Positions 32,631 through 63,717 of a stretch of DNA of 64,000 nucleotides are shown piece after piece (the first letter of the stretch is position 1; every line of letters starts with the position of its first letter). The position numbers and the translations under genes are program-made. The stretch lies in assembly GCA_045632345.1 (NCBI GenBank), contig JAZQWM010000082.1:147686-211685 (forward strand), given 5' to 3'. Origin of the DNA: Eubacteriales bacterium (lineage in GTDB: Bacteria; Bacillota; Clostridia; Oscillospirales; CAG-272). Below the pieces are notes generated by a model. That model did no database searches. It saw nothing but the letters and a program-made list of their open reading frames with translations, and was not told the origin of the DNA.

Positions 32631-33728
32631 TTATATCATAGCAAGTATTTGATTTGTGTTATTTTTCGCAAAGTCAGAAAGTGAATATGAGCGAATTCTT
32701 TCTTTTATAACGTTTGGTATTAAAAATCCGTTTGATGCAAGCTTAACACATCTATTTATAACGGTTTTATTGTTAACATTAAGCTTTTTGCTCATTTCGA
32801 TAGGTGTAAATTCATAAATGTGATTTGAAACAATAAATTTCAAAAATTCCTTTTCTTTGAGGTTTAGATAGGATAAGCTTCCGTTAATATCATCCTCAGC
32901 TGAGCTCTTAGAAAGCTCATAAACCTTCTTGGAATATAGCTCTACCATGCGAAGAAAATAGTTAAACCAAATTTCTGAATGAGGCGGATTTTCTCTGCCC
33001 GAATAGTATAATGCAGGCAATCCCATTTGAAGAGAAGAATAATACTCATCGGAGTCGTAAGCAAAATACTCTTCCAAAGAGCCTATACCGCCAAAGCCGT
33101 AACCGTATAAGTCTAATATATATCCAGACATAAGTCTTGCAGTTCTGCCGTTTCCATCCTCAAAAGGGTGAATTGTAACTAATTGATAGTGAACAATAGC
33201 CGCTATTATAAGCGGATGGTCGTCAGTTGTGTTAACATACTCTACAAGCTCATCAAGTAGTGCAGGAACATCTGAGTATTCCGGCGGAATGTATTCAGGA
33301 GCGCCGCTTTCAGTATCGTAAACAGCAAATAATACTCCGGGTGGCATTTGCCCTCTTAATCCGATTTTTTCTTTTGATGCGCCCTTTTCAACTATCCTTT
33401 GAACCTCTAGTATAAGCTCCTTAGAAAAAGGAGTTTTATTTTTAACCTTTTCTTCAAGTAGAGTAAGAGCAGAATAATAGTTTCTTATCTCTTGCTCAGG
33501 CTTTAAAAAATGCTTATGTGAATCACTTTCGATTACTTCACTAGCTTGCTTTTCTGTTAATGGATTACCTTCGATTTTATTGGAAGCATAAGAGCTTTTT
33601 TTCTTTGAATTTTTTCGTAGCTTATTTCTAGTAATTATCGGCAGCTCAACAGTGCCTAAAAGAAAACGATTTTCGTCAATAGCTGATATTCTTTTTAAAA
33701 TATCATTAGTAAGAATTGCTCTAATCAT
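32631..33728 (-). CDS. Fic-domain protein (self-inhibited type) with C-terminal HTH
   Basis: HPFEDGNGRTAR catalytic motif; SNKIEGN inhibitory motif. Confidence 0.9.
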   Translation of the reverse strand: MIRAILTNDILKRISAIDENRFLLGTVELPIITRNKLRKNSKKKSSYASNKIEGNPLTEKQASEVIESDSHKHFLKPEQEIRNYYSALTLLEEKVKNKTPFSKELILEVQRIVEKGASKEKIGLRGQMPPGVLFAVYDTESGAPEYIPPEYSDVPALLDELVEYVNTTDDHPLIIAAIVHYQLVTIHPFEDGNGRTARLMSGYILDLYGYGFGGIGSLEEYFAYDSDEYYSSLQMGLPALYYSGRENPPHSEIWFNYFLRMVELYSKKVYELSKSSAEDDINGSLSYLNLKEKEFLKFIVSNHIYEFTPIEMSKKLNVNNKTVINRCVKLASNGFLIPNVIKERIRSYSLSDFAKNNTNQILAMI

Positions 33729-34609: not shown

Positions 34610-34736
34610 GCATTGCAGGGGCACACGGTGTGCGCAGAGAATAGGGGCGACTTCGTTGCAGGGATTTTAGCAGAAAATTGTTTACTAACCACCCTGTGAG
34701 CGTAGCGAGCCCCTATCCCCTGTCCCCTATCCCCTC
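34610..34736. repeat. REP/MITE-like family A copy (reversed)
   Basis: CCCTGTGAGCGTAGCGAGCCCC plus heptamers. Confidence 0.8.
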
Positions 34737-34752
34737 ATTCAAAAGGAGAAAT

Positions 34753-35142
34753 ATGAATATTAAAGAGATAAAAAAAGACCTAAGACAGTTAAAAAAGACT
34801 ATACATATTATTGAAGCATTAAAAAGAAGTCAAGCAAGATATACGGACAGGATTGACACCCTATCAAAATTCGTACAGACACCTAAAATAAAGGAGCAGA
34901 TTGAAACCACAAAAAAGGTAATGTCCTTACTTAAAATCGAGGAATACATAAAAGAAGCAAACGAAATTGAAAGCAAGTATATGGATGCAATAAACAGTCT
35001 TGACCCTATTGAAAGAACAATAATCATTGAAAGCTTTCTAAACGGCAATCCATATTGGAAAATCGGACTTGACCTTGGCTATGAGGAGGAGACAGTAAGA
35101 AAAAAAGTTTATAAGATTTTGAGAAAAATCGCAAATCGTTAA
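34753..35142 (+). CDS. RinA/ArpU-like phage transcriptional activator (sigma70 region-4-like HTH)
   Basis: AAAGGAG RBS; coiled-coil N-terminus; AINSLDPIERTII...YWKIGLDLGYEEETVRKK. Confidence 0.7.
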   Translation: MNIKEIKKDLRQLKKTIHIIEALKRSQARYTDRIDTLSKFVQTPKIKEQIETTKKVMSLLKIEEYIKEANEIESKYMDAINSLDPIERTIIIESFLNGNPYWKIGLDLGYEEETVRKKVYKILRKIANR

Positions 35143-40057: not shown

Positions 40058-40197
40058 AGGGATAGGAGACAGGGGATAGGGGATAGGGGTTCGCTACGCT
40101 CACAGGGTGGTTAGTTATTCCCTGCGAATGCAATGAGCCCCTGCAATAAAGTCGCCCCTGCGAATATATGAGCCCCTGCAACGAAGTTGCCCCTGTT
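40058..40197. repeat. REP/MITE-like family A copy
   Basis: Core plus subrepeats, between nusA and ylxR. Confidence 0.85.
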
Positions 40198-46887: not shown

Positions 46888-47799
46888 ATGAAAAAAACAA
46901 GATTTATTTACCCCTTCATCTGCCTTCTTGCCGCAATAATCTGGGGACTAAGCTTCCCTTTTCAAGATATGGCAGGAGAAAACGCCCACATATTTGACGG
47001 CTTTATGTTTAACGGTCTGCGCTTTTTAATAGGCGGCTTGGTTGTTATTCCTGTTTTCCTTCTTTTTGAAAAGGAAAAGGAGCTAAAAGCAGAGGAAAGA
47101 AAGGTCAAGCACAAAAACACTGTGCTTCTTGGCATAATTTCCGGTCTTATTCTCTCTTGCGCATCGGTTTTACAGCAATTCGGTATTCAAATGACGGGAG
47201 AAAGCGGAAAAGCAGGCTTTATTACAGGACTTTACCTAATTATCGTGCCTGTTGGAGCTTTCATTATGTTTAGACAAAAGGCTTCTCTTTTTGTTTGGAT
47301 TGCTATTCCTATTTCAGTTTTAGGCTTATATTTCCTATCAATTTCCGATGGCTTTACAATCAAAACAGGCGATATTTTAGTAATCTTATGTGCATTCGGC
47401 TACGCGGCGCAAATTATTTTTATTGACCGTGTTAGCACAAAAATCAGTGCAATCAGATTTTCCTGTACTCAATTCCTAACCACCGCCGTGGTTTGCATTA
47501 TACTCAGCCTACTTTTCGGTCATACCACCTGGGAGGGCGTTGTTTCAACAATCGTTCCTATTCTCTACTGTGGCGTATTCTCCGCAGGCGCGGCGTTTAC
47601 TCTCCAGGTTGTAGGTCAAAAGCATACTCCACCGGCAGTAGCCTCAATTCTCTTTGCAACTGAGGGACTTTTCGCCACAATCTTCGAGTGCCTAATTGAA
47701 TTAAAGCTACCAAGCCTAAAAATCACAATCGGCTGTGTCCTTATGCTTGTAGCCATTATGCTTTCACAGATAACTTTTTCTCCAAAGAAAAAGTTATAG
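46888..47799 (+). CDS. DMT/EamA family transporter
   Basis: About 10 TM helices; IWGLSF, KAGFITGLY, FTLQVVGQK. Confidence 0.9.
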   Translation: MKKTRFIYPFICLLAAIIWGLSFPFQDMAGENAHIFDGFMFNGLRFLIGGLVVIPVFLLFEKEKELKAEERKVKHKNTVLLGIISGLILSCASVLQQFGIQMTGESGKAGFITGLYLIIVPVGAFIMFRQKASLFVWIAIPISVLGLYFLSISDGFTIKTGDILVILCAFGYAAQIIFIDRVSTKISAIRFSCTQFLTTAVVCIILSLLFGHTTWEGVVSTIVPILYCGVFSAGAAFTLQVVGQKHTPPAVASILFATEGLFATIFECLIELKLPSLKITIGCVLMLVAIMLSQITFSPKKKL

Positions 47800-47874: not shown

Positions 47875-47919
47875 TCGGTAAAACTATACCGGTCAGTCCC
47901 GGTTTTTTTATTTTATAAT
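47875..47919 (+). promoter_or_regulatory. Conserved non-sigmaA promoter motif, copy 1
   Basis: TACCGGTCAGTCCCGG-T7-ATTT-TATAAT upstream of the initiator gene. Confidence 0.7.
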
Positions 47920-47959
47920 TGTATCAGAAGTAAATAAACAATTATAAAGGAGAAACAAA

Positions 47960-49120
47960 ATGGAACAACAAGGCTGGGTAAAATTTTATAGGGAATGGTT
48001 AGATAACCCAATAATAACAAAGGACAGTGAGCATTTGGCAGTATGGACTTATTTGAACTGTCAAGCAATACATACAGAAGTGGAATGTATTTTCAACAAT
48101 GAAAAAATCACTTTAAAAGCAGGACAAGCTATTTTTAAACAGTGCGATATGGCTGAATATTTGAAAATTGACAGATTTAAAGTGCTAAGAATATTAAAGT
48201 GCTTTGAAAATGCACGTCTGATTACACATCAAACAGATAAGCGAAAAACCCTGATAACGCTTGAACTTTGGGCGGTTTGTCAGGGATTAAATACACAACC
48301 AAATGCACTTCCATTGCACGTTCAATGCACATCTAACCAAGAAACAGAAAACGAAAAAGAGAAAAGAAGCAAAAGAGAAAAAGATAAAGAAAAAGAAATA
48401 AACAAGAATGAAAAGAATGAAAGAATATATATCCCCCCTTATATCCCCCCATTAGGGGAAATGAACGGAAACGCTCCTTTTTCCCTTTCGGAAAAACACG
48501 GACAGGGGACGGGGGCGTGTCCGCAGGACCTTGATAGGTGGCTTGAAGAGGATGACGGTATCGACGATTGGGACAAAGTTCAAATTTATTATAGAAATTT
48601 GAACAGCTGTCAGCAAGATAGCTTAACAGAGGATAACGAAACGAACGGTTTTGCACTTACCAATCCTATTCAGCAAGAAAAGGAAGAAAGAAGCAACCCT
48701 CAACCCCAACCCCCTTCTCCCTTTGCCACGGGCGAACATTTGCCGCAGGCAACTTCGTTTGAGGCAACGCCTCAACTTCATTGCGAAGTACTTCATTTGA
48801 ACAAGGTTCAACATCGTTCCGAAAAAGACCTTGAGGAGTTTTTCGGGCTTTTCTGGCAAGCATATCCTAAAAAGGTTGGCAAGGGATACGCTTTTGATTG
48901 CTTTAAAAAGATAAGAGTATCAAGAGCGTTACTTGATACCATGCTAGAAGCAATCGCCAAGCAAAAGAAAAGCGATATGTGGAAGCGAGATAAGGGTCAG
49001 TACATACCAAATCCGTCAACGTGGCTTAATCAAAAACGCTGGGAAGACGATTTAGGCGGCGAAGCTGACGACGACGGTCAAATTCCTTGGAGCAAATTTA
49101 ACCTTGGAATTGTTTTGTAA
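47960..49120 (+). CDS. Phage-type replication initiator / replisome organizer
   Basis: N-terminal GWVKFYR...ITLKAGQ; KE-rich linker; C-terminal FWQAYPKKVGK...IPNPSTWLNQKRWED. Confidence 0.8.
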   Translation: MEQQGWVKFYREWLDNPIITKDSEHLAVWTYLNCQAIHTEVECIFNNEKITLKAGQAIFKQCDMAEYLKIDRFKVLRILKCFENARLITHQTDKRKTLITLELWAVCQGLNTQPNALPLHVQCTSNQETENEKEKRSKREKDKEKEINKNEKNERIYIPPYIPPLGEMNGNAPFSLSEKHGQGTGACPQDLDRWLEEDDGIDDWDKVQIYYRNLNSCQQDSLTEDNETNGFALTNPIQQEKEERSNPQPQPPSPFATGEHLPQATSFEATPQLHCEVLHLNKVQHRSEKDLEEFFGLFWQAYPKKVGKGYAFDCFKKIRVSRALLDTMLEAIAKQKKSDMWKRDKGQYIPNPSTWLNQKRWEDDLGGEADDDGQIPWSKFNLGIVL

Positions 49121-49144
49121 TTTATTTGAAAAAAAGTTTGATTT

Positions 49145-49189
49145 TCGGTAAAAGTATACCGGTCAGTCCCGGTTTTTTTATGCAATAAT
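49145..49189 (+). promoter_or_regulatory. Conserved non-sigmaA promoter motif, copy 2
   Basis: 35 of 36 nt identical to copy 1, then TGC-AATAAT; upstream of the terminase. Confidence 0.7.
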
Positions 49190-49361
49190 AGAGTTGCAGG
49201 GGAAGAGAGAAACAAAACAAACGCTTAATGCAAGATTAAATCAATAATCAAATCTTGCTGACCGCTGACTCAGCCTTCCTTGTGTAAAGGAAGGGGGACC
49301 ACGAATGTGGTGGAAGGATTGTTCTTCCGCTGACAGCTTAAGCGACCGAAGGGGGCGAAAA

Positions 49362-51140
49362 ATGACCATTCATGACTTGATTAGTAAAAGAAAACAGCGG
49401 TGGCAAGAAATGCGCGATATTGAATACGACCGCATTTTAGTGGAAGCTATTGCCGATAAAATTCTGGAAAGCGAGGAGCTAAGAGGTCAAATTATTAAAA
49501 AGCCGTATTTGTTGATTGAATGCTGCTTCACTATCGTTGATAAGCAAAAAAGAACCGTTCCCTTCTTTTTGAATGACGTTCAACGTGATTTCATCAATAA
49601 AATTGAAGAATACGGCACGTCAAAGCCATTTTTCGTGCTAAAAGGCAGACAGCAAGGCTTTACAACTGTAATTACCGCCATTCAGCTATCCTATGCCATT
49701 GTGCGAAAAAACTTTTCCGGATTTACTCTTGCGGACAGAGATGACAACACCAAGGCAATTTTCATTGACAAGGCGAAAATGATTTACTCTAATCTGCCTG
49801 AAAGATTAAAGCCAACGGAAAAATTCAATTCAGTAAACGAATTGTTTTTTGACAAGCTGAACTCTTCATGGCGTATTGCCTCAGCCACCTCAAACGTAGG
49901 ACGAAGCAGAACATTATCCTTTATTCATTATTCAGAGGTAGCGTTTTTTAACTGTCCCTTGGCTGATTTACAAAAATCAATTCAAGAGGCGGCAATCAAG
50001 GATGCTCTTTGTATCTACGAGACCACCGCCAACGGCTTCAATGAGGCGAAATCTCTTTGGGACTTAAACTCCTGTCATAACCTTTTTTACGAATGGTGGA
50101 AAACTCCCGAATATGTGTCAGATGAATATGAATATCTTGAAAATACAGACACATGGTTAACAAATAGGCTTAAAAACCTTGAAAAAATCGGGCTTAGCCG
50201 TGAGCAGCGTACTTGGTATGCAAAAAAATATTCTTCCTATATAGACAAGTCGTCAATAAAGCAAGAATATCCCTGCTCACCTGAGGAAGCCTTCGTATCC
50301 AGCGGCAGCTGTGTCTTTAACAAGGACGAAATAAGCGAATATTTAAGCGTTTTTGACGTAAAATCAAGGATTGGCGTATTTGAATATGACAAAATAGCGC
50401 ACCCCGTAATCTCCCCTGACGGAAATCTGCTAGGCTGTACGTATTCCATTGAAAATATCCGTTTTATTGACACACCCTCGGGCTTTATATCAATAGTTGA
50501 CACGCCTTACTCTGAAAACAAAGGCACGCAAATATTAAAAAAGCCATACGTTATTGGCGCAGATACTGCGGGCACAGGCAAGGACTTCTTTACCGCCAAG
50601 GTTATTGACAACACAAACGCAAGATGTGTGGCAACGCTACGAAAGCAGTACATGGACGAGGATTTATTCGCCGAACAGCTTTACTGCCTTGGAAGGTTTT
50701 ATAATGACGCATTGATTGGCGTTGAAACAAACTATTCCACCCACCCTGTAAGGCATTTAAGGTCATTAGGCTATGAAAATCTTTACGTTTCAAAAACCAT
50801 GTCAACCTTCGGCGACGTAACGGACAAGCATTACGGCTTTATTACCACCTCAGTAAGCAGACCTATAATTATCTCTAACTTAGTGTCTGTAATGAGAGAA
50901 AACGTAAAGCTTGAAACCGACCGTCAAACGCTCATTGAAATGACAACCTTCATTAAGCGAAACGACGGTAAAAGCGGTGCATGTGATGGCGCTCATGACG
51001 ATTTGGTGTTAGCTGCAGCAATCGCGCGGTACATATCTATTGATTATGAGCATAATATGCAAATAATTGACACATCCCAGGACTTTCTTATTAAAAACTT
51101 CTCTTCTCCTTCCCCTGAAAATTCATTTATGGAGTGGTAA
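49362..51140 (+). CDS. terL: Phage terminase large subunit
   Basis: LKGRQQGFTT (Walker A), IHYSEVAF (Walker B), ETTANG, QEYP, IGADTAG, VETN, HDDLVLA. Confidence 0.9.
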   Translation: MTIHDLISKRKQRWQEMRDIEYDRILVEAIADKILESEELRGQIIKKPYLLIECCFTIVDKQKRTVPFFLNDVQRDFINKIEEYGTSKPFFVLKGRQQGFTTVITAIQLSYAIVRKNFSGFTLADRDDNTKAIFIDKAKMIYSNLPERLKPTEKFNSVNELFFDKLNSSWRIASATSNVGRSRTLSFIHYSEVAFFNCPLADLQKSIQEAAIKDALCIYETTANGFNEAKSLWDLNSCHNLFYEWWKTPEYVSDEYEYLENTDTWLTNRLKNLEKIGLSREQRTWYAKKYSSYIDKSSIKQEYPCSPEEAFVSSGSCVFNKDEISEYLSVFDVKSRIGVFEYDKIAHPVISPDGNLLGCTYSIENIRFIDTPSGFISIVDTPYSENKGTQILKKPYVIGADTAGTGKDFFTAKVIDNTNARCVATLRKQYMDEDLFAEQLYCLGRFYNDALIGVETNYSTHPVRHLRSLGYENLYVSKTMSTFGDVTDKHYGFITTSVSRPIIISNLVSVMRENVKLETDRQTLIEMTTFIKRNDGKSGACDGAHDDLVLAAAIARYISIDYEHNMQIIDTSQDFLIKNFSSPSPENSFMEW

Positions 51141-51141
51141 A

Positions 51142-51297
51142 ATGATAAAAATATTAAAAAGAATACGGGAGCTTGAAAAAAGAGTTTCCCATATTGAAAA
51201 AGCATTAGAAGGCGTAAATAACGTGCCTACCTCTGATGCTGACACGTCTGACTACAAGGAGGTGATTGACGAGTGGCTCAATGGCAAAAAGAGATAG
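51142..51297 (+). CDS. Small coiled-coil protein between terminase and portal
   Basis: GGAG RBS; ATG two bases after the terL stop; MIKILKRIRELEKRV...VIDEWLNG. Confidence 0.65.
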   Translation: MIKILKRIRELEKRVSHIEKALEGVNNVPTSDADTSDYKEVIDEWLNGKKR

Positions 51298-52899
51298 ATC
51301 GTGAAACGCATCTTTATAAAATGTATAAAAACGGTTTATCCTATCAAGCAAAAATCGGCATAAGCCAATCAATTCCGCAAGCCATTGATTTTTTTGAGGG
51401 TAGGCAATGGCCTGCTCCCACAGAAAGCACAAAGAATTTGCCAAGACCTGTTATTAACGTTGTTAAGCAAATTTGCCGCAGCAAGAAATCTGCAATTCTC
51501 TCAACTCCGGTTAAGCCTATTTTCAAAAGCTACACCCAATGCATTGACATATCAAAATTCAATTCCTTTGCAACGTCAATTTTCAAGGAGCTTGGGCAGG
51601 ACGCCCTTGACAAGCTTGCCATTGATGACGGCGTAAAGAAGGGCTCGTACTTCTACCATTACTATTGGGACAAAAACGCCATTGACTTAAACGGCATTAT
51701 GGACGGCGGCGTAAGATGTGAGCTAATTGACCCGCTTAACATTTTCTTTTCAAATCCGTCAATTTATGACGAGCAGAAGCAAAAGTGGATTTTGATTGCA
51801 TCACATCTTGATTTAAGTGAGGCATCTGCATTATGCGACGGAAATATAAGCATCGAAGCTCTTGAGACTGACAAAAACCAAGACGGCTCAATTACGGTGC
51901 TTACACGATATTTCAGAGTTGACGGCGAGGTTTACTTAGAGCGAGGAACGCGCTCACAAATGATTGCAGGTCCGTACCCCATCGCTCCTGCTGAGATAAA
52001 CCCCGTAAATGCTGGAAAGTTGGACGACTAAAAAACAGGCAGAGACAATAAAACGTGTGCGAGCAGGGCTATATCCTATCGTTTGCGGATTTTATGAAAA
52101 GCGCGACGGCTCAATTTTCGGCATTAGCGAAATTGACGGCATTATTCCAAATCAAAAGTCAATCAATTTCAACATTGCCATGAGCCTACTTAACGCTCAG
52201 GAATGTGCGTGGGGCAAATACGTTGCTCTACCAAACGCTTTAAAGGGTCAAAAGATTTCCAACGTGCCGGGACAGGTGCTTATCGACCATTCAGGCACAG
52301 GCAACGGCATTAAGCGTATGCAGGAGCAGCCATTAAGCTCCGTGCCTATGTCTATAACGGACAGCATTATTGAAATGACCAAGTCATCAAGCGGAGTTAA
52401 TGCCATTATGGGCGGCGACCTACAATGGTCCAACATGTCGGGAGTTGCGATAGCTCAGCTTCAAGCCCAAGCTCAGCTACCTATCGAGGAGCTTCGCTCT
52501 CAGTTTTGGGAGGTTAAGCGCAAGCAGGCTCTTGTTATAGCTCAGTTTATGAAGCTGTATTATTATAAGAAGCAATTTGTTACGGTAATTAACCAAGACG
52601 GCATGGATAAAGAAATTTTCGACTACTTTACGTCAAGGGACTACGAAAATTCAATTTTTGACGTATCGGTTGAGGTATGCGGTGGCTCTAATTATTCAAG
52701 CACGTCTGTAATTAGTATGCTTGATAGCTGCTTAAGTAGCGGAAAAATCTCTATTGAGACCTATATTAAAGCATATCCCGACTCTGCTCTTATCAATAAA
52801 ACTGAAATTTTAAAGCAAATCGAAGCTGAAAAATCATCAGAGCTTCAACGCTTAAGAAATGAGCTTAACGAGTTAAAATCATCAAAAATTAACGCTTAA
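51273..52899 (+). CDS. Phage portal protein (P22-like), split into two overlapping ORFs (51273..52031 and 52009..52899)
   Basis: DFFEGRQW, PRPVINVVK, ELIDPLNIF, YPIV, GISEIDGIIPNQKSIN, SGVAIAQLQ; position between terL and scaffold. Confidence 0.75.
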
Positions 52900-53015
52900 A
52901 TTTATCAAATTTGTTGACAAATCAACACATGATTTTGAATAAAATCCCAAACCGATTTTTTTACAAAACAGTTGACCCTGTGTCTGTAAATCAACATTTT
53001 TGAGAAAGGAAAATT

Positions 53016-53705
53016 ATGCAAAATAATAAGCAAAAATTTAAGGAGTTTTCCCCACTCTGTGTGGATAATTCCACAAAAAATCAAGAAAAATCAAATCAAA
53101 ATCAGTCTCTTTCAGGTGTTACTGATAAAAACGATGAAAAAACGCCTAATTTTCAAGAAAACAGCGACGTTTTGTCTGCAAGCGCGGTAGATTTACCCGT
53201 CGAGGGCGTTTCCGACATCAACAGTGCTTCAAATGCAAGTAAAACCGACGGTTTTGAGCAAAAAGCGGCTGAAAGCCAAGAGAACACAGGCGAAAGTCAA
53301 GAGAATGCAGGCGAAAGCCAAGAGAATACAGGCGAAAGCAAGGTTATTTTAACCTATGAAAGCCAAATCGAGCGTGATTTTAACGATTTTTCTATAATTT
53401 ATCCGCATATAAGTAAGGAGCATCTTCTTTCTAACGAAAGCTTAAGGCTTTTTGCTGAGGGCAAGGAAAGCAAGCAGCTTAGCGTTGTTTACGCTACCTA
53501 CTGCAAATTCGCTAATATTATTGCAAACGATGCAATTTTGCAGGAAAAATCACGAATTTCTAACGCCAGCAGCTCCTCAGGGTCATTATCTAGCTCACAA
53601 GGAGCAAACAAATCTTATTTTACCAAAGAGCAGGTAAAAGCCATGTCCGCCGAGGAAATTAAGCAAAATTACGATTTAATAAGACAAAGTCAAAGAAGCT
53701 GGTAG
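53016..53705 (+). CDS. Putative capsid scaffolding protein
   Basis: Acidic disordered N-terminus with ESQEN[T/A]G x3; C-terminal FTKEQVKAMSAEEI..NYDLIRQS; lies directly before the capsid gene. Confidence 0.65.
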   Translation: MQNNKQKFKEFSPLCVDNSTKNQEKSNQNQSLSGVTDKNDEKTPNFQENSDVLSASAVDLPVEGVSDINSASNASKTDGFEQKAAESQENTGESQENAGESQENTGESKVILTYESQIERDFNDFSIIYPHISKEHLLSNESLRLFAEGKESKQLSVVYATYCKFANIIANDAILQEKSRISNASSSSGSLSSSQGANKSYFTKEQVKAMSAEEIKQNYDLIRQSQRSW

Positions 53706-53777
53706 TACCTTTCTTGCTTGGCGCAAATATACGGTCATATCCCAAAGGGAATGAACCACAAGGAAAGGAAAAATATT

Positions 53778-54620
53778 ATGGCATATACTAACTTTATCCC
53801 ATCAGTATGGGCAGAAACAATCAACAGAGAATTAGAAAGAGCTTGCGTGTTCGTTGAGGACTGCAACAGACAATATGAGGGCTTAGTGTCCTCAAAAGGA
53901 GACAGCGTACATATTTTAGGCGTTGGCAAGCCTACAATCAAGACGTTGGACCGCGCAAACGCCTCAGGCGAGATCGACTCTGCCGAGGAAATCGAGGACA
54001 CGTCCGTTATCTTAGGCGTCAACCAAATCAGATATTTCAACTACATGGTTGGCGACATTGACAAGGCACAGGCAGTTGGCGGTCTTATGGATACGCTTTC
54101 AGCTGAAACCAGCGAGGGTCTTGCCCTTGAAATGGACAGATACATCTCATCAATGGCAACAAGCCAAGACGTTGAGAAGCTTACAGACACCGCTACCACG
54201 TTAACCAAGGACAACGTTCTTGACGTTCTTGATACAGCAATCATGAAGCTTCAAGAGAATGACGTTTCAATGGCGTCCGGCATTACAGTAACAGTATCCC
54301 CACGCTTCTACAAGCTCTTTAAGCAAGCGTACGTTGGCAAGGACACCGACAACAGCGATTTCCTTAAAAACGGCAAGGTCGCGATGTACGGCAACGTAAC
54401 GGTTAAGCTCTCAAACAACGTAGCAAGAACCGAGGACGGCGCAGTTGATAACATCATGATCCGTTCCAAGAGAGCTATCGCATTCGTTAACCCACTTACA
54501 CACACAGAAGCATACCGTCCTGAAAAGACATTTGCTGACGCTGTTAAGGGCTACGTTCTCTTTGACGGCAAGGTTGTAAGACCAAAGGAAATTATCAACA
54601 TCAACGTTAAGTACGCGTAA
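53778..54620 (+). CDS. Major capsid protein (P22 coat-like)
   Basis: NFIPSVWA, NRQYEG, GDSVHI, VGDIDKAQ, EAYRPEKTFADAVKG, GKVVRP; GAAAGGA RBS. Confidence 0.88.
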   Translation: MAYTNFIPSVWAETINRELERACVFVEDCNRQYEGLVSSKGDSVHILGVGKPTIKTLDRANASGEIDSAEEIEDTSVILGVNQIRYFNYMVGDIDKAQAVGGLMDTLSAETSEGLALEMDRYISSMATSQDVEKLTDTATTLTKDNVLDVLDTAIMKLQENDVSMASGITVTVSPRFYKLFKQAYVGKDTDNSDFLKNGKVAMYGNVTVKLSNNVARTEDGAVDNIMIRSKRAIAFVNPLTHTEAYRPEKTFADAVKGYVLFDGKVVRPKEIININVKYA

Positions 54621-54817
54621 GCGCATTACGCACAAGGCAAAATAAGGCGATTTAAGCGCATTATAACCTAAATTGGATAAATTACACTTAAAACTCAGAT
54701 AAGGGTCTTAAACGGTCTTATTTTCAGCCTAAACAGCATTTAAAATCAATTTGCAAGCGCCAAAGCAAGATAATTAACCAAATTTCATTGTTGACAGGAA
54801 ATTCAAAACGAAATAAA

Positions 54818-54853
54818 GGAAAGGGCAGCCCATACGGACTGCTCTTTCTTTTT
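54818..54853 (+). terminator. Terminator after the capsid gene
   Basis: GAAAGGGCAG...CTGCTCTTTC followed by a T run. Confidence 0.65.
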
Positions 54854-55512
54854 GGAATTTTATTCAGGATTTTCAGAGATTGAATTTCTTGCATTTTTTG
54901 AATTTCAGCTGACCCTGTGTCTGTAATTCAAATTTTTCTCAAAATTGTTATTTGCATAATTATACACACAAATCGCATAAATATACAAAAGCAATAATTT
55001 CGGGGTTTTGTTTGCCCTGTGTCTTTAAAATGGTATATTTTCCTTTCAAAACAACGCAAAGCCAAGGGTTTTTGGCGCTTTTTAATGAATTTTCTTTCAA
55101 TTTGCATGCATTTCTCTACTGAGGGGTTAAATTTAAGCTTAAAGCACGTAAAACAGCTGCAAAACAAGCTATTTTCGGGCAAAATTAAGGTATTTTAACC
55201 CACTTTAATCCATTCGGAGTCGGTTTAATCCATTTTAAGCATTTTAAGACATTTTAAAGCCACCCATAAGGCATTTTATAAGCCATTAAAGACGTTTCAA
55301 GGCGTTTTAAGCCACTTTAAGACGTTTCCAATACAAATTCTGTCTTTGTGGCGCATAAGCATGCAATGCGCGTCATGACAAGCCAAATAAGGCTGTTTTA
55401 AAGGAGATATAGCTCTATCAATGATTTATTGTCGTTATAAAGGAAAATTAAGCCAACGTCGTTATATCCGCTCTCAGACAAACAAAAGCCTTATATATGG
55501 CGTTATAGCATG

Positions 55513-55956
55513 CTATTTTTTCTCTATTTTCTTAATCAACCTAGAAGTTAAGCAAGCAACAGATAACACCACGAGCGCAGCAGCAACCAAATCGCAAAGC
55601 AATATACGGTAGGATTTCTCACAAACGAAAGCACCCTTACTTCTCTTTTCTTTAAGCTTTATTACTTTACGACAAGCATCCAAGCTACCGATATTTTCCT
55701 CTGCTTTAAAGGCAAAATGAGCTTCGTTTGTATCGGGTTTGTCATGCTCCAAGGCGTAGCTATCGCAGAAACAAGTGTCATTTTCCGGGCTTAAATCATG
55801 TTTATTTTCAACCTTATTTACCGCGCCTAAGGAAGCGTTTTCCAAAGCACAATTAACAATATCCTTACGTTTAAGAACATAAAAAGAGCGTTTAGTTTTA
55901 ACGGTTATGACAGTTCTTTTAGGGTCATTTCTGTATCTTTTAATAAAGCCAAGCAT
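55513..55956 (-). CDS. Hypothetical protein with C-terminal TM segment
   Basis: GAGG RBS; 147-aa ORF. Confidence 0.5.
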   Translation of the reverse strand: MLGFIKRYRNDPKRTVITVKTKRSFYVLKRKDIVNCALENASLGAVNKVENKHDLSPENDTCFCDSYALEHDKPDTNEAHFAFKAEENIGSLDACRKVIKLKEKRSKGAFVCEKSYRILLCDLVAAALVVLSVACLTSRLIKKIEKK

Positions 55957-56209: not shown

Positions 56210-57022
56210 ATGTCAAATCAGCAAAACACAGTACAAAGCCAAGAAATTCAACAAATCGAAGTAACAAGGATATCGCCAAACCCCAACCAACCAAGAAAAA
56301 TATTTAATGAGGACAGCATAATCAAGCTAGCTGACAGTATCAACCAATACGGCATAATTCAGCCATTAACCGTAAGAAAAGTAGGCGAAAATTACGAATT
56401 AGTAGCAGGAGAAAGGCGTTTAAGAGCTGCTAAGGAGCTTGGGCTTAGCCACGTTCCCTGTGTAGTAATAGCCATAAACGAGGAAAAATCAGCAGAAATA
56501 TCTATAATAGAGAACCTTATAAGAGAGGATTTGAACGTTTTCGAGCAAGCAGAGGCAATAGAAGCTTTAATTGATACATACGGTCTTACCCAAGAGCAAA
56601 TCGCCGCCAAGCTATCAAACAGTCAATCTTTTGTGGCAAATAAGCTTAGATTATTAAGATATAACCCAAACGAAAGAGAGATAATCCTAAAAAACAACCT
56701 TACAGAACGTCATGCAAGGGCGTTATTACGAGTTTTAGACCCCGATTTAAGGGCGAAGCTACTTAACAGAATAGTTACAGAGCATTTGAACGTAAGCGCC
56801 TCAGAAGAGCTTATAGAAGCACATTTAAACCAAGAAGCCACAACGCAAAAGCAAGACAAACACACATATAAGTCAGTAAATTCGTTCTATTCCGCCATAA
56901 ATCGTGCCATTGATACAATAAAGAACAGCGGGATAGAAATCAAAAGCCGCAGGGTAGAAAGCGATAACTATACCGAATTAACAATTCTAGTACCCAAATT
57001 TAGCGAAATCACAGTAGAATAG
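56210..57022 (+). CDS. ParB-family protein, nucleoid occlusion (Noc)-like
   Basis: PNPNQPRK, AGERRLRA, ENLIREDL, VANKLRLL, LTERHARALL; upstream of parA-parB. Confidence 0.85.
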   Translation: MSNQQNTVQSQEIQQIEVTRISPNPNQPRKIFNEDSIIKLADSINQYGIIQPLTVRKVGENYELVAGERRLRAAKELGLSHVPCVVIAINEEKSAEISIIENLIREDLNVFEQAEAIEALIDTYGLTQEQIAAKLSNSQSFVANKLRLLRYNPNEREIILKNNLTERHARALLRVLDPDLRAKLLNRIVTEHLNVSASEELIEAHLNQEATTQKQDKHTYKSVNSFYSAINRAIDTIKNSGIEIKSRRVESDNYTELTILVPKFSEITVE

Positions 57023-61140: not shown

Positions 61141-61332
61141 TCTTGTAAAGCCTTATACTACAAGGGTTTGTACAACTTAATACATCAAAGGGAATGAGTT
61201 ATGCTTGTTCCCTTTTTTGGCGCACTTTTCCACAAATTAGTGTAATTTTTATGGAATTTTGAGTTTGCTGATTTTCTAAAAAGCTCAAAATTCGGAAGCT
61301 CTAATTTTGGAAAGTTTTTATTTCAAAAAGTG

Positions 61333-61365
61333 TACCGGTCAGTACCGGTTTTTTTGTGTTATAAT
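61333..61365 (+). promoter_or_regulatory. Conserved non-sigmaA promoter motif, copy 3
   Basis: TACCGGTCAGTACCGG-T7-GTGT-TATAAT. Confidence 0.65.
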
Positions 61366-61549
61366 ATAATCACCCTAAGAACATATAATACTCATATGTA
61401 AGCAAAAGTTAATTTATTAGGCTTAGAAGAACTTCAAAAAAGTGAAAATAAAACAATCGAACTTTAATTAATTGTTTTGATGAAAACAGTTGAAATTTGG
61501 CGTTTTTTATGTTAGAATTTCTTTGTAATCAGACCAACGAGGTAATATC

Positions 61550-62518
61550 ATGAAGCCTAAAAGTATTAATTCATTAATGGCACATATGCGAGATGTAAAG
61601 CATATTCAAATAGAAGGAAGTATTCAAAAGAAAAAGCTAAGGCATATTGGATATTTCCACGGATACAAAGGATATCGTTATTGTAATTCTCCAAGTGTTC
61701 TTTTACCATATAATAATTTCAATGAGTTACAAGCAGTATACGATTTCGATATGAAAGTGAAATCTATACTTTATCCACAAATAATGTCGCTTGAAACAGC
61801 TTTAAAAAATTATGTACTTGAAGAAATTTTAACTGATGCGAACAGCAATAGATTTGCTGATGTTTACAGCAAATTAATGAAAGACTACAAAACTTATCCT
61901 ATCGGGAGCAAAGATTATAAAGATTCAATAACTAGACGAATGAATGTTCGCAACAAGATTTATAGCGTAATTTCTCGCGACTATGGCAAAAACAACATTA
62001 TCGCCCACTATTACGACAAAGATGAACCCGTGCCAATTTGGGCAATATTCGAACTAATAAGTTTAGGAGAGTTTGGAAATTTCATTTCGTGTTTAAATCT
62101 AAAAACAAGGTTAAATATTTCAAAATCTGTAGGAATTATTTCTAGTATAGACGGAGATGGAAAAATGCTTGAAACGATCGTTTATGCAATTAAAGATTTG
62201 AGAAATTCCATAGCACATAACAATATAATTTTTGACAACAGATTCAAGACTGGAAAGATTAACTCTCGCATTTCTAATTATATTTCTAAAGAAACGGGAA
62301 TTGCAAATATTACGTTTCAAACAATTGTTGACTACATAATTTTATTGTCTTTTTTGATGAAACTATTAAAATATAATAAATCAGATATACTTCCATTTAT
62401 TACACAATTTGAAGAAGCGTGTGAAGATTTGAGGGGAAAAATCCCAGTGAATATTTTTTCGAAAATTGTATATACTGATACTAGAGTAAAACTAAGTACA
62501 ATGAAAAAATACTTGTAA
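61550..62518 (+). CDS. Abi family (AbiD/AbiF-like, Abi_2) HEPN protein
   Basis: IGYF, YDFD..K, ETALK, PIWAIFELISLGEF, HEPN motif RNSIAH; own TTGAAA-17-TAGAAT promoter near 61490. Confidence 0.85.
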   Translation: MKPKSINSLMAHMRDVKHIQIEGSIQKKKLRHIGYFHGYKGYRYCNSPSVLLPYNNFNELQAVYDFDMKVKSILYPQIMSLETALKNYVLEEILTDANSNRFADVYSKLMKDYKTYPIGSKDYKDSITRRMNVRNKIYSVISRDYGKNNIIAHYYDKDEPVPIWAIFELISLGEFGNFISCLNLKTRLNISKSVGIISSIDGDGKMLETIVYAIKDLRNSIAHNNIIFDNRFKTGKINSRISNYISKETGIANITFQTIVDYIILLSFLMKLLKYNKSDILPFITQFEEACEDLRGKIPVNIFSKIVYTDTRVKLSTMKKYL

Positions 62519-62808: not shown

Positions 62809-63717
62809 AAGAGTGTTCCCGGTTATCAAGAATTTATGTTTCCTATATTAAAATTGTTATATGACGGAAAACTATATCGCAAAAAAGAGATTTTTGAACA
62901 AATGGCAGTTTCCTTTAACTTAACTATGGAGCAAATGGATGAAAGACTGCCATCACAATCAGAACCAACTTACATAAACAGAGTCGGTTGGGCGCTTACT
63001 TATATGAAGAAAGCAGGATTAGTGGAAAGTCCTGTTAGAGCTTGCTTTGCTATTACTGATGAAGGAAAGAAAATAGTAGATAATAACATTACAAATCTAA
63101 ACACAAAATATCTAAGAAAGTATCCGTCTTTTTTAGAATTTCAAAAAATATCTCACAACACAACAACTAAAAATGTAGATGTTGAAAAAGATAGCGAAAC
63201 CCCTTTTGAAAAAATAGTTTCATATAATGCGGTTATCAAAAAATCAATTTGTGATGACCTTTTAAATAAAATATTAGAGCAATCCCCTTACTTCTTCGAA
63301 CAATTGGTAGTAGATTTGCTTGTTTCTATGGGCTATGGAGGAAATATCGAAGATGCCGGAAAAGCTACTAAAAAGTCCGGAGATGAAGGGATTGATGGTT
63401 TAATAAAAGAAGACAAGCTTGGTCTCGACACAATATACATACAAGCAAAAAGATATAAAAAAGAAAACCTTGTTGGAAGACCGACTATACAACAATTTAT
63501 AGGTGCACTTCAATTAAAGGGGGCACGAAAAGGCATTTTGATAACAACATCAGACTTTACCAAAGAAGCGATTGAAGCGGTTTCATATAGTACAACAGTA
63601 TCTATTGTTTTAATAAACGGTACTAAACTTGTTGACTTGATGTACGAACACAACATCGGTGTAGGTTTGGAAAAAATAATCGAAATCAAAAAAATCGACA
63701 ACGATTATTTTGAATAA
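62809..63717 (+). CDS. mrr: Mrr-family type IV restriction endonuclease; expected start codon reads AAG
   Basis: SVPGYQEFMFPIL, NRVGWALTYM, FEQLVVDLL..MGYG, GDEGIDG, IQAKRY, ITTSDF. Confidence 0.88.
   Translation, partial: KSVPGYQEFMFPILKLLYDGKLYRKKEIFEQMAVSFNLTMEQMDERLPSQSEPTYINRVGWALTYMKKAGLVESPVRACFAITDEGKKIVDNNITNLNTKYLRKYPSFLEFQKISHNTTTKNVDVEKDSETPFEKIVSYNAVIKKSICDDLLNKILEQSPYFFEQLVVDLLVSMGYGGNIEDAGKATKKSGDEGIDGLIKEDKLGLDTIYIQAKRYKKENLVGRPTIQQFIGALQLKGARKGILITTSDFTKEAIEAVSYSTTVSIVLINGTKLVDLMYEHNIGVGLEKIIEIKKIDNDYFE

Follow-up and report, generated by a model that had tools for sequence, protein, structure and literature searches.

What does a bacterium do with genes for a phage head that stand by themselves among host genes? 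The question is raised by a stretch of 64,000 nt, called here the window, from Eubacteriales bacterium (CAG-272; assembly GCA_045632345.1, contig JAZQWM010000082.1, 147,686 to 211,685 of the forward strand), in which a head module occupies 47.9 to 54.9 kb, between a gene for a drug/metabolite transporter (DMT) and noc-parAB. An earlier note on this DNA had proposed one locus of a dispersed, domesticated system resembling gene transfer agents (GTAs), or else a capsid compartment, and had listed as its parts an initiator gene, terL (large terminase), a small open reading frame (ORF), portal, scaffold and capsid genes and a terminator, a list that holds position by position (Table 1). Scans of the ORFs between 40 and 64 kb detected no integrase, repressor or tail gene, in agreement with the same note. 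We now recognise three conserved loci; the head genes follow the host tree, and head and tail loci have a promoter motif in common. As far as anatomy and evolution go, the dispersed system is thus well supported. Our preferred reading, to which we give a probability of about 0.6, is that the module is the head and packaging part of a chromosomally fixed, vertically inherited, phage-derived particle system, namely a GTA of the podovirus type.

Conservation and inheritance of the head locus

Our set of loci was made up of the surroundings of terL homologues and of 59 capsid-gene loci (at least 50% identity) from public metagenome-assembled genomes (MAGs). An initial search found homologues of terL in 20 of 24 same-genus genomes and, for other families of the order, in 1 of 16 genomes. 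Two types of locus were distinguished. Type A, with 25 distinct loci from related species, is a head-only locus (terL, a small ORF designated s76, portal, scaffold, capsid), flanked on one side by metA, a pyridoxal phosphate enzyme gene, a DUF711 gene and an ACT-domain gene, or by cysS-dus-DMT, and on the other side by noc-parA-parB, with noc lying within the fetched downstream DNA for 22 of the 25. Between these host flanks the type A loci hold solely the five head genes, plus, in some, an unknown ORF of 673 aa. A divergent ORF of 668–673 aa without a Pfam match, F20, lies between the ACT-domain gene and terL in four species (L014, L021, L023, L026 and their duplicates). Type B loci have a gene at the position of terS (small terminase), the same head genes and further structural genes, all in one operon. 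The flanks of in-genus type B loci vary from genome to genome, and because of this we take type B loci to be phages or prophages.

A tree was built from concatenated terL, portal and capsid sequences of 55 loci, leaving out L024 (no capsid gene on its contig), L040 (terL split) and duplicates. All 23 type A rows formed one clade, with a support of 100 in the Shimodaira-Hasegawa-like approximate likelihood ratio test (SH-aLRT), nested among type B rows. For 15 loci we compared the module tree with a tree of noc, parA and parB, and every starred split agreed. Two checks that the earlier note had recommended thus came out in its favor: the search of relatives for the same module without an integrase gave 25 distinct loci at the same chromosomal site, and the comparison of TerL and capsid trees with the host tree gave a single type A clade congruent with the noc, parA and parB tree.

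The third recommended check, the ratio of nonsynonymous to synonymous substitution rates (dN/dS, omega), gave 0.06–0.26 for the main set of the five head genes, far below 1. Overall, omega was 0.06–0.13 for terL, portal and capsid genes, 0.21–0.26 for the scaffold gene and 0.29–0.67 for s76; between the window and locus L031 it was 0.067 for terL, 0.08–0.10 for portal, 0.21 for scaffold and 0.058 for capsid. In the same comparison dS was 0.65–0.84 for the module and 0.49–0.98 for the flanking host genes, and across the loci the synteny of the module was kept while dS reached saturation. An undivided ORF was found for terL in 24 of 25 loci (in L040 there is a stop inside the gene), for the portal likewise in 24 of 25, and for the capsid gene in all 24 loci covered. 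One clade, host congruence, omega of 0.06–0.35 and a dS like that of the flanks are what vertical inheritance under purifying selection, as known for GTAs, should leave behind. None of the outcomes that the earlier note had named as contrary to its proposal, that is patchy presence, dN/dS near 1, incongruent trees or complete prophages with att sites, was found.

A tail locus on another contig

The same note had advised looking elsewhere for tail and lysis loci with the promoter motif of the head operon. A whole-genome search with the proteins of type B tail modules gave a match on contig C35, where a tail locus with this motif is present; of the lysis locus there was no sign, in that no lysis enzyme was recognised at the three loci. 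In our genome the tail locus (gene order in Table 1) sits between a surface-repeat protein gene and the host gene prmC. Homologues of its gene F13 were found in 38 of 49 other genomes of the genus. When 20 of the F13 places were fetched, 17 proved to be tail-only loci of the same gene order, which with C35 makes 18; host genes bound these loci, 13 of the 18 adjoining a pair of related genes (the one scanned encodes a transketolase subunit) and 3, including that of this genome, adjoining prmC. The 18 loci formed one clade (SH-aLRT 99) with a branching that mirrors the head tree, and omega was 0.09–0.35 for the tail genes and for the activator described below.

Two products of the tail locus could be assigned by comparison with solved structures. 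The profile of F12 matched a solved 'head to tail adaptor' (E 4.5e-4). The AlphaFold model of F13, with a mean predicted local distance difference test (pLDDT) score of 77.5, had podovirus portal-tail or tail-complex entries in all of the first 23 places of its fold search (lowest E 2.7e-20), among them A4, the T7 nozzle gp12, Carin-1, Kp7/Kp9 and SU10; sequence identity was 7–11%, and a sequence search of the PDB gave no match for F13, so that the assignment comes from the fold search. An adaptor and a nozzle are the parts of a podovirus (T7-like) tail that attach to the portal. Because of the adaptor match of F12 and the nozzle-like fold of F13, we assign to the second locus a short tail of the T7 kind; with the head locus added, the set of virion genes is full.

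In o82, the first gene of the operon, some 85 residues at the C-terminal end form a conserved core, and in the phage-like sister locus L053 it fills the terS position. As a candidate TerS, o82 drew no support from the searches: there was no Pfam match above threshold, the PHROG match was to 'unknown function' only, no PDB sequence match was obtained, and the model was weak (pLDDT 65) and had no fold match. The statement of the earlier note that no terS lies beside the module is right for the head locus, but a terS-position gene is found at the tail locus on the other contig. F16 and F21 are two large unknown proteins. The locus is closed by three membrane proteins with 2–4 predicted helices, which could be holins or ejection proteins.

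In the head tree, the head-only clade has as its sister group the contiguous loci L050 and L053 (genomes G065 and G019; SH-aLRT 99). The tail tree places these two loci at a great distance from the tail-only clade, which there pairs with the in-genus type B group. It may be that head and tail loci go back to two distinct, though related, elements, or that there was recombination of the modules.

A common late promoter and a candidate activator

A 36-nt motif occurred twice, at 47876 and 49146, where 0 copies were expected by chance. It belongs to an element of about 55 nt composed of AAAGTGTACCG, five bases, GTACCGG, a T-run, ATGCAATAAT and TGCAAGG. In most type A loci in which it was recognised, the motif lies 13–80 nt upstream of terL; in tail loci it precedes o82, and in type B loci the first of the structural genes. 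Allowing at most 3 mismatches, a search of the 450 nt before terL recovered the 16-mer core of the motif in only 15 of the 25 type A loci, and diverged versions were seen by eye in G005, G009, G012 and G014. The earlier note's promoter motif before terL is more than a local feature, being common to tail loci and type B elements as well.

The two half-sites change jointly between species as a direct repeat (GTACCG, GTATCG, CTAACG or GTACCAC). The motif fits an activator-dependent promoter, because the direct repeat overlaps the −35 region ahead of an extended −10. We also considered a plain terminator: in this genome the half-sites are self-complementary, so that a simple scan calls a hairpin with a T-run, but the feature conserved across species is the direct repeat with the extended −10. 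We take the motif to be a promoter/operator that may also terminate transcription in this genome.

A candidate for the activator is encoded at a third locus. In type B phages outside the genus, a protein of about 135 aa (B11) is encoded just upstream of the late promoter, and a small protein encoded in the window, with a C-terminal helix-turn-helix resembling sigma-70 region 4, is 44% identical to it. Its longest ORF starts at 34678; the likely start is the ATG at 34754, behind an AAGGAG site. The gene was found in 36 of 49 other genomes of the genus, adjoined the same YbaK/tRNA_edit gene in all 13 loci inspected, and had an omega of 0.12 against G054. The putative recognition helix differs wherever the half-site differs, with SEEG(V/I)RK for GTACCG, TE(V/A)GIRKR for GTATCG and WVRAK for CTAACG. 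Because of its position in related phages and of this covariation between helix and half-site, we infer that the protein activates the head and tail operons. A dedicated activator, which the earlier note knew from other GTAs, thus has a conserved candidate and a shared motif, with the activating role itself a deduction.

Some further elements lie near these regulatory sites. A gene for a Fic/DOC-domain protein (32631–33728) is found about 1 kb upstream of the activator gene and is not kept there in the other 12 loci. A dispersed C-rich repeat (CCTGTGAGCG...CCCCT...) is present in the leader of the activator gene (window 34693–34740) and in that of the tail operon (C35, upstream of o82); weak copies were seen at window 40059–40118, on C69 and at C35:4394–4495, and further copies in G057. 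An additional copy of the motif (61326–61366), its −10 being TATAAT, precedes an Abi_2 gene (61550–62518) by about 180 nt, and this gene is followed by a gene for a Mrr-type restriction endonuclease (62836–63717) in a stretch of low GC content (0.30–0.34). The defence gene Abi_2 may thus be wired to a phage-type late activator.

Distribution of the loci in the genus

With the capsid gene, F13 and the activator as markers, all three were present in 35 of 50 genomes of the genus and none in 10; the remaining 5 were partial, and 4 of these are less than 90% complete. In five marker-free genomes the ACT-domain gene does not adjoin noc at all, which suggests that the marker-free genomes are a separate lineage and not a case of scattered loss. 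A single capsid-gene match was obtained for this genome and in all for about half of those in the genus, and about a dozen hold a second full copy of the capsid gene; a type B element beside a head-only locus was demonstrated for four.

In L104 (G059), L111 (G049), L019 (G013) and L028 (G021) the whole structural operon, from the terS-position gene through the membrane proteins, forms one cluster of about 12.5 kb. Both flanks of the L104 cluster are host genes (carboxylase subunit, beta-lactamase-family gene, GDSL lipase, M20 peptidase, NAPRTase), and the cluster has CTAACG half-sites, with a separate activator that carries the WVRAK helix. Such a contiguous, structural-only cluster may be an unsplit form of the GTA-like system.

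Anatomy of the head locus

The features of the window and of the tail locus are collected in Table 1. Farther upstream of the module lie dus, cysS, a CAAX protease gene, rimP, nusA and infB. Within this genome terL, portal and capsid genes are single-copy, which speaks against a helper phage residing in it. The best match among deposited phages had 34% identity for the capsid protein and 29% for TerL, and for this reason we see no close cultured relative; the closest deposited capsid matches are 'P22 coat protein' genes, at 31–34% identity.

Table 1. Positions of the head locus, its flanks and its regulatory features in the window, with the gene order of the tail locus.
Feature	Position	Strand	Evidence or remark
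Candidate late-gene activator (ACT)	34754–35142	+	small protein; C-terminal sigma-70 region-4-like helix-turn-helix
EamA/DMT transporter gene	46888–47799		upstream flank
Motif copy before initiator gene	47876–47925	+	TATAAT −10; same 5' version before the C40 initiator paralogue
Replication-organiser ('initiator') gene	47960–49120	+	PHROG replication initiation 5.9e-25; DnaD-like helicase loader 1.3e-22
Putative late promoter/operator of head operon	49146–49200	+	half-sites 11 nt apart over −35, T-run, extended −10 (TGCAATAAT), TGCAGG box
Two short hairpins in long 5' leader of terL	49257–49296	+	the 'repeat-like hairpin' of the earlier note
terL (large terminase)	49305–51140	+	phrog_2, 3.7e-19
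s76, small ORF of 76 aa in the terL-portal interval	51067–51297	+	homologues in the corresponding position of both locus types
Portal, N-terminal part	51273–52031	+	phrog_156, positions 34–233
Portal, C-terminal part (+1 frame)	52009–52899	+	phrog_156, positions 291–564; Pfam P22_portal 4e-10
Scaffold-position ORF	53016–53705	+	named solely from its place between portal and capsid genes
Major capsid gene	53718–54620	+	phrog_267, 2.8e-34
Terminator-like hairpin	54825–54842, T-rich tails to 54855		end of head operon
ParB-like noc	56210–57022		downstream flank; parA and parB beyond
Tail locus, contig C35			order on its own strand: initiator paralogue, shared motif, o82, F12, F13, F16, F21, three membrane proteins

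The true start of terL is probably the ATG at 49362, because relatives align only from residues 14–21. Most relatives have a spacing of only 13–44 nt between motif and terL, as against the long leader in the window. The TerL motifs KGRQQGFT, FIHxSE, YETTANG, GaDTAG, DEDlfA and HDDLV are kept in at least 90% of 55 family sequences. The earlier note was correct in reading ATPase and nuclease motifs in TerL, but the P-loop, KGRQQGFT, is a variant without the canonical GK[ST]. Neither s76 nor the scaffold-position ORF had a family match in the Pfam and PHROG scans; the C-terminal 110 or so residues of the scaffold-position protein are kept in all loci.

The portal gene, in which the earlier note had noticed no break, is split in the window into two ORFs by a +1 shift, caused by one extra A in an A-run at about 52022–52031 relative to L031 and L032, whose portals are single ORFs of 542 aa; in 24 of 25 type A loci the portal is one ORF of 522–580 aa. 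In 2 of 4 runs, which belong to a single study, metagenome contigs of low depth bridge the break with 113 letters as against 117 in the window; this form, shorter by 4 nt, has the length pattern of the intact relatives and keeps one frame. Since contigs of close strains fit the intact length and both halves of the gene still have an omega of 0.08–0.10, the break is either recent or an assembly error. The segment around it (window 51944–52060) is variable: G002 is without about 43 nt of it, and in comparison with L031 and L032 the window shows, besides the extra A, a difference of one codon.

Between the terminator of the head operon and a conserved minus-strand ORF (55513–55956) there are AT-rich, imperfect repeats of 9–10 nt of the TTTAAG type (window 55160–55340). 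The ORF, of unknown function, has an omega of 0.33–0.40 and is restricted to this subclade. A replication origin near 42 kb was considered and dropped; the local change in GC skew is not outstanding in the profile of the whole window.

The initiator gene and its copies

The initiator encoded upstream of terL has a DnaD-like N-terminal part and a C-terminal part of the phage replication-initiation type. The earlier note had counted it as part of the module; apart from the window, the only one of the loci searched to show it before terL was L032, with a fragment where a contig begins. The genome has at least four further copies and a remnant, several of them at contig ends, with identities of 69% (C35), 62% (C60), 52% (C40) and, over the C-terminus, 90% (C49). 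On C49 the initiator is followed by the motif and by a gene for a DnaC-like helicase loader (phrog_50, 1.1e-43), and because of this arrangement the gene appears to derive from a phage-type replication module. An intact copy with the motif lies directly before both the head and the tail operon of this genome, and an initiator fragment also starts the tail-locus contig of the nearest relative. By its distribution we regard the initiator as a lineage-specific, multi-copy addition and not as core to the module.

At their ends C40 and C60 share one stretch of 141 bases with C49 (loci L092–L095), where motif and loader gene follow; there are therefore at least two copies of the initiator-loader module, which the assembly does not separate. 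A decayed initiator fragment with the motif lies at C39:24759. At 2.92 Mb this genome compares with roughly 1.4–2.7 Mb for the other searched genomes of the genus. A rather speculative idea, which we mention with little confidence, is that in the lineage of this genome the operator of the activator also governs the initiator copies, the DnaC-like loader and Abi_2; the replication organisers would then fire in situ on induction, and by run-off replication the structural loci, with the DNA around them that is near the origin, would be amplified so as to be expressed or packaged.

Interpretation and alternatives

We propose the following course of events for a GTA of the podovirus type. The activator would bind the direct repeat overlapping the −35 region of the shared late promoter and so switch on the head and tail operons together; procapsids would be assembled from scaffold, capsid protein and portal and filled by TerL; and adaptor and nozzle would close the filled heads to give short-tailed particles. 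These would most likely carry host DNA, because there are no integration or lysogeny genes and, outside the window's own lineage, no replication genes. Structural and packaging genes in the chromosome, free of integration, lysogeny and self-replication modules save for the lineage-specific initiator here, are the usual form of a GTA. Particle formation, packaging of host DNA and release would all follow from this reading of the genes. The capsid compartment offered by the earlier note as an alternative, an encapsulin-like nanocompartment, is unlikely given that terL and portal are present and under selection and that adaptor and nozzle are encoded elsewhere.

Several points weigh against the GTA. 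Ten of the 50 genomes of the genus have none of the three markers, and marker counts do not tell a split arrangement from a contiguous cluster or a phage. With the frameshift in its portal, this strain, taken as assembled, may be unable to form particles. A role of o82 as TerS is assigned by position only, and no endolysin was recognised at any of the three loci, which leaves release unexplained. The match of the activator to Pfam Sigma70_r4 (5.5e-5, 23.0 bits) is under the cut-off of 24.1 bits, and the covariation between helix and half-site amounts to about three or four independent changes. Finally, type B elements share the promoter architecture and co-reside with the loci in about a dozen genomes of the genus, so that the loci might answer an infecting phage.

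This last point leads to the main rival, a phage-responsive parasite or defence system, in which the late activator of an infecting type B phage would switch on the operons and their products would divert or poison phage assembly or hitch-hike on it, the last being the way of capsid-forming satellites, instead of forming an autonomous GTA. We think it unlikely, while giving it more weight than the other alternatives. The common promoter architecture would serve it well, as would the motif before the abortive-infection gene Abi_2 in this genome, and so would the second capsid copies, with the caveat that co-residence with type B was demonstrated in four genomes of the dozen or so. The portal and scaffold-position proteins of type A are, moreover, shorter than those of type B (the median length of the portal is 555 as against 643 aa, without the C-terminal extension), and satellites also alter portal and scaffold proteins. 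In contrast, an activator belonging to the host is retained at a fixed site, and it is this protein that the half-sites match; about half of the genomes of the genus, including this one, have one capsid-gene match only; a full packaging and tail set under purifying selection is more than interference needs; and the element is immobile, with no integrase or excision function and with synteny kept to saturation of dS.

We consider it improbable that the loci make killer particles of the kind of the defective phage PBSX, or other particles that are of use to the host but deliver no DNA. The portions of PMC12946183 on which we draw name PBSX as the other precedent in Gram-positive bacteria. Such particles would need the same anatomy, and nothing in the present data separates them from a GTA, whereas an intact TerL nuclease and ATPase together with particles of the podovirus type imply filled heads. 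Decay to a functionless prophage remnant, which the portal frameshift, the stop in terL of L040 and the missing lysis, integration and lysogeny genes would suit, is scarcely credible for genes that are intact in 24 of 25 loci at an omega of 0.06–0.26, far below 1, with dS up to saturation, that form a single host-congruent clade with tail locus, activator and promoter conserved alongside, that are distributed in nearly all-or-none fashion (35, 10 and 5 of 50 genomes with all, none and some markers), and of which even the broken portal has both halves at an omega of 0.08–0.10 and a one-frame form, shorter by 4 nt, in contigs of close strains.

Comparison with known systems

To our knowledge few GTAs have been described outside the Alphaproteobacteria. 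The loci reported here would be a genus-wide, well-delimited candidate GTA in uncultured gut Clostridia, and the parts list of five head genes, about nine tail-locus genes, a regulator and a promoter that is probably read by it makes the system directly testable. They also suggest an evolutionary path from an undivided podovirus structural operon, of the kind that related phages and the structural-only clusters of sister species still have, to two chromosomal loci that keep the ancestral late promoter.

The tail would resemble that of T7 in the nozzle-like fold of F13, the adaptor match of F12 and the type B gene order capsid-adaptor-nozzle; in contrast to T7, the terminase genes start the operon and the portal is P22-like by Pfam. 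Capsid-forming phage-inducible chromosomal islands (cf-PICIs) are satellites that encode their own heads and take the tails of a helper; they carry integrase, regulator and replication genes and are mobile. They share with our module the head-only set of terminase, portal, scaffold and capsid genes, whereas the module is fixed, with no integrase in or beside it and the same site in 22 of 25 loci, it co-diverges with the host according to the congruent trees, and the matching tail locus is encoded by the host itself.

The GTA of Rhodobacter capsulatus, RcGTA, is reportedly controlled by GafA, a DNA-binding activator encoded elsewhere in the genome. That system, too, consists of domesticated phage structural genes at several loci, vertically inherited and under a dedicated activator; it differs in being siphovirus-like, in having head and tail genes in its main cluster and in belonging to Alphaproteobacteria, and there is no detectable sequence relation. 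In the Bartonella system, BaGTA, a phage origin is said to amplify by run-off replication the region to be packaged. The replication-organiser gene beside the structural loci of this genome and its nearest relative recalls BaGTA, whereas most species that carry the module are without the initiator, and an amplifying role is suggested here by analogy only. If that tentative idea were true, replication-coupled GTA production would have been invented a second time, by convergence, in gut bacteria of the Gram-positive group.

The first GTA of the human gut, FpGTA of Faecalibacterium prausnitzii, was described in 2026 (Borodovich et al., Nat Commun; PMC12946183). According to the sections of that paper used here, its particles are about 40 nm in size, contain DNA pieces of about 9 kb and are encoded by two operons 125 kb apart; tails were not seen, and the particles were judged most likely podovirus-like (PMC12946183). 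Operon FpGTA I, of 10.5 kb, encodes TerS, the head genes and several further proteins, and FpGTA II encodes baseplate, fibre, receptor-binding protein, holin and endolysin (PMC12946183). The same sections report GTA-like packaging in Christensenellaceae MAGs and do not name the gene cluster (PMC12946183). Our literature search for FpGTA and for gene transfer agents in Christensenellales gave no other description, and there were no Faecalibacterium records among the 59 capsid-gene loci at 50% identity or more.

As far as the published description in those sections allows, the two systems differ in several respects. The head operon here is a head-only operon of five genes, with the terS-position gene, adaptor and nozzle at the tail locus; a separate candidate activator and its promoter were identified; and no endolysin was recognised, whereas FpGTA II has one. 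FpGTA is documented by particles, proteomics and DNA data, and the present system is known from its genes. By the architecture described in the same sections, FpGTA is the closest known system, and the present one is of the same kind: both systems are phage-derived and belong to gut Clostridia, both are without replication and lysogeny genes, both have their genes in separate operons and short-tailed parts, and in both the head genes follow the order TerS-like, TerL, portal, scaffold, capsid.

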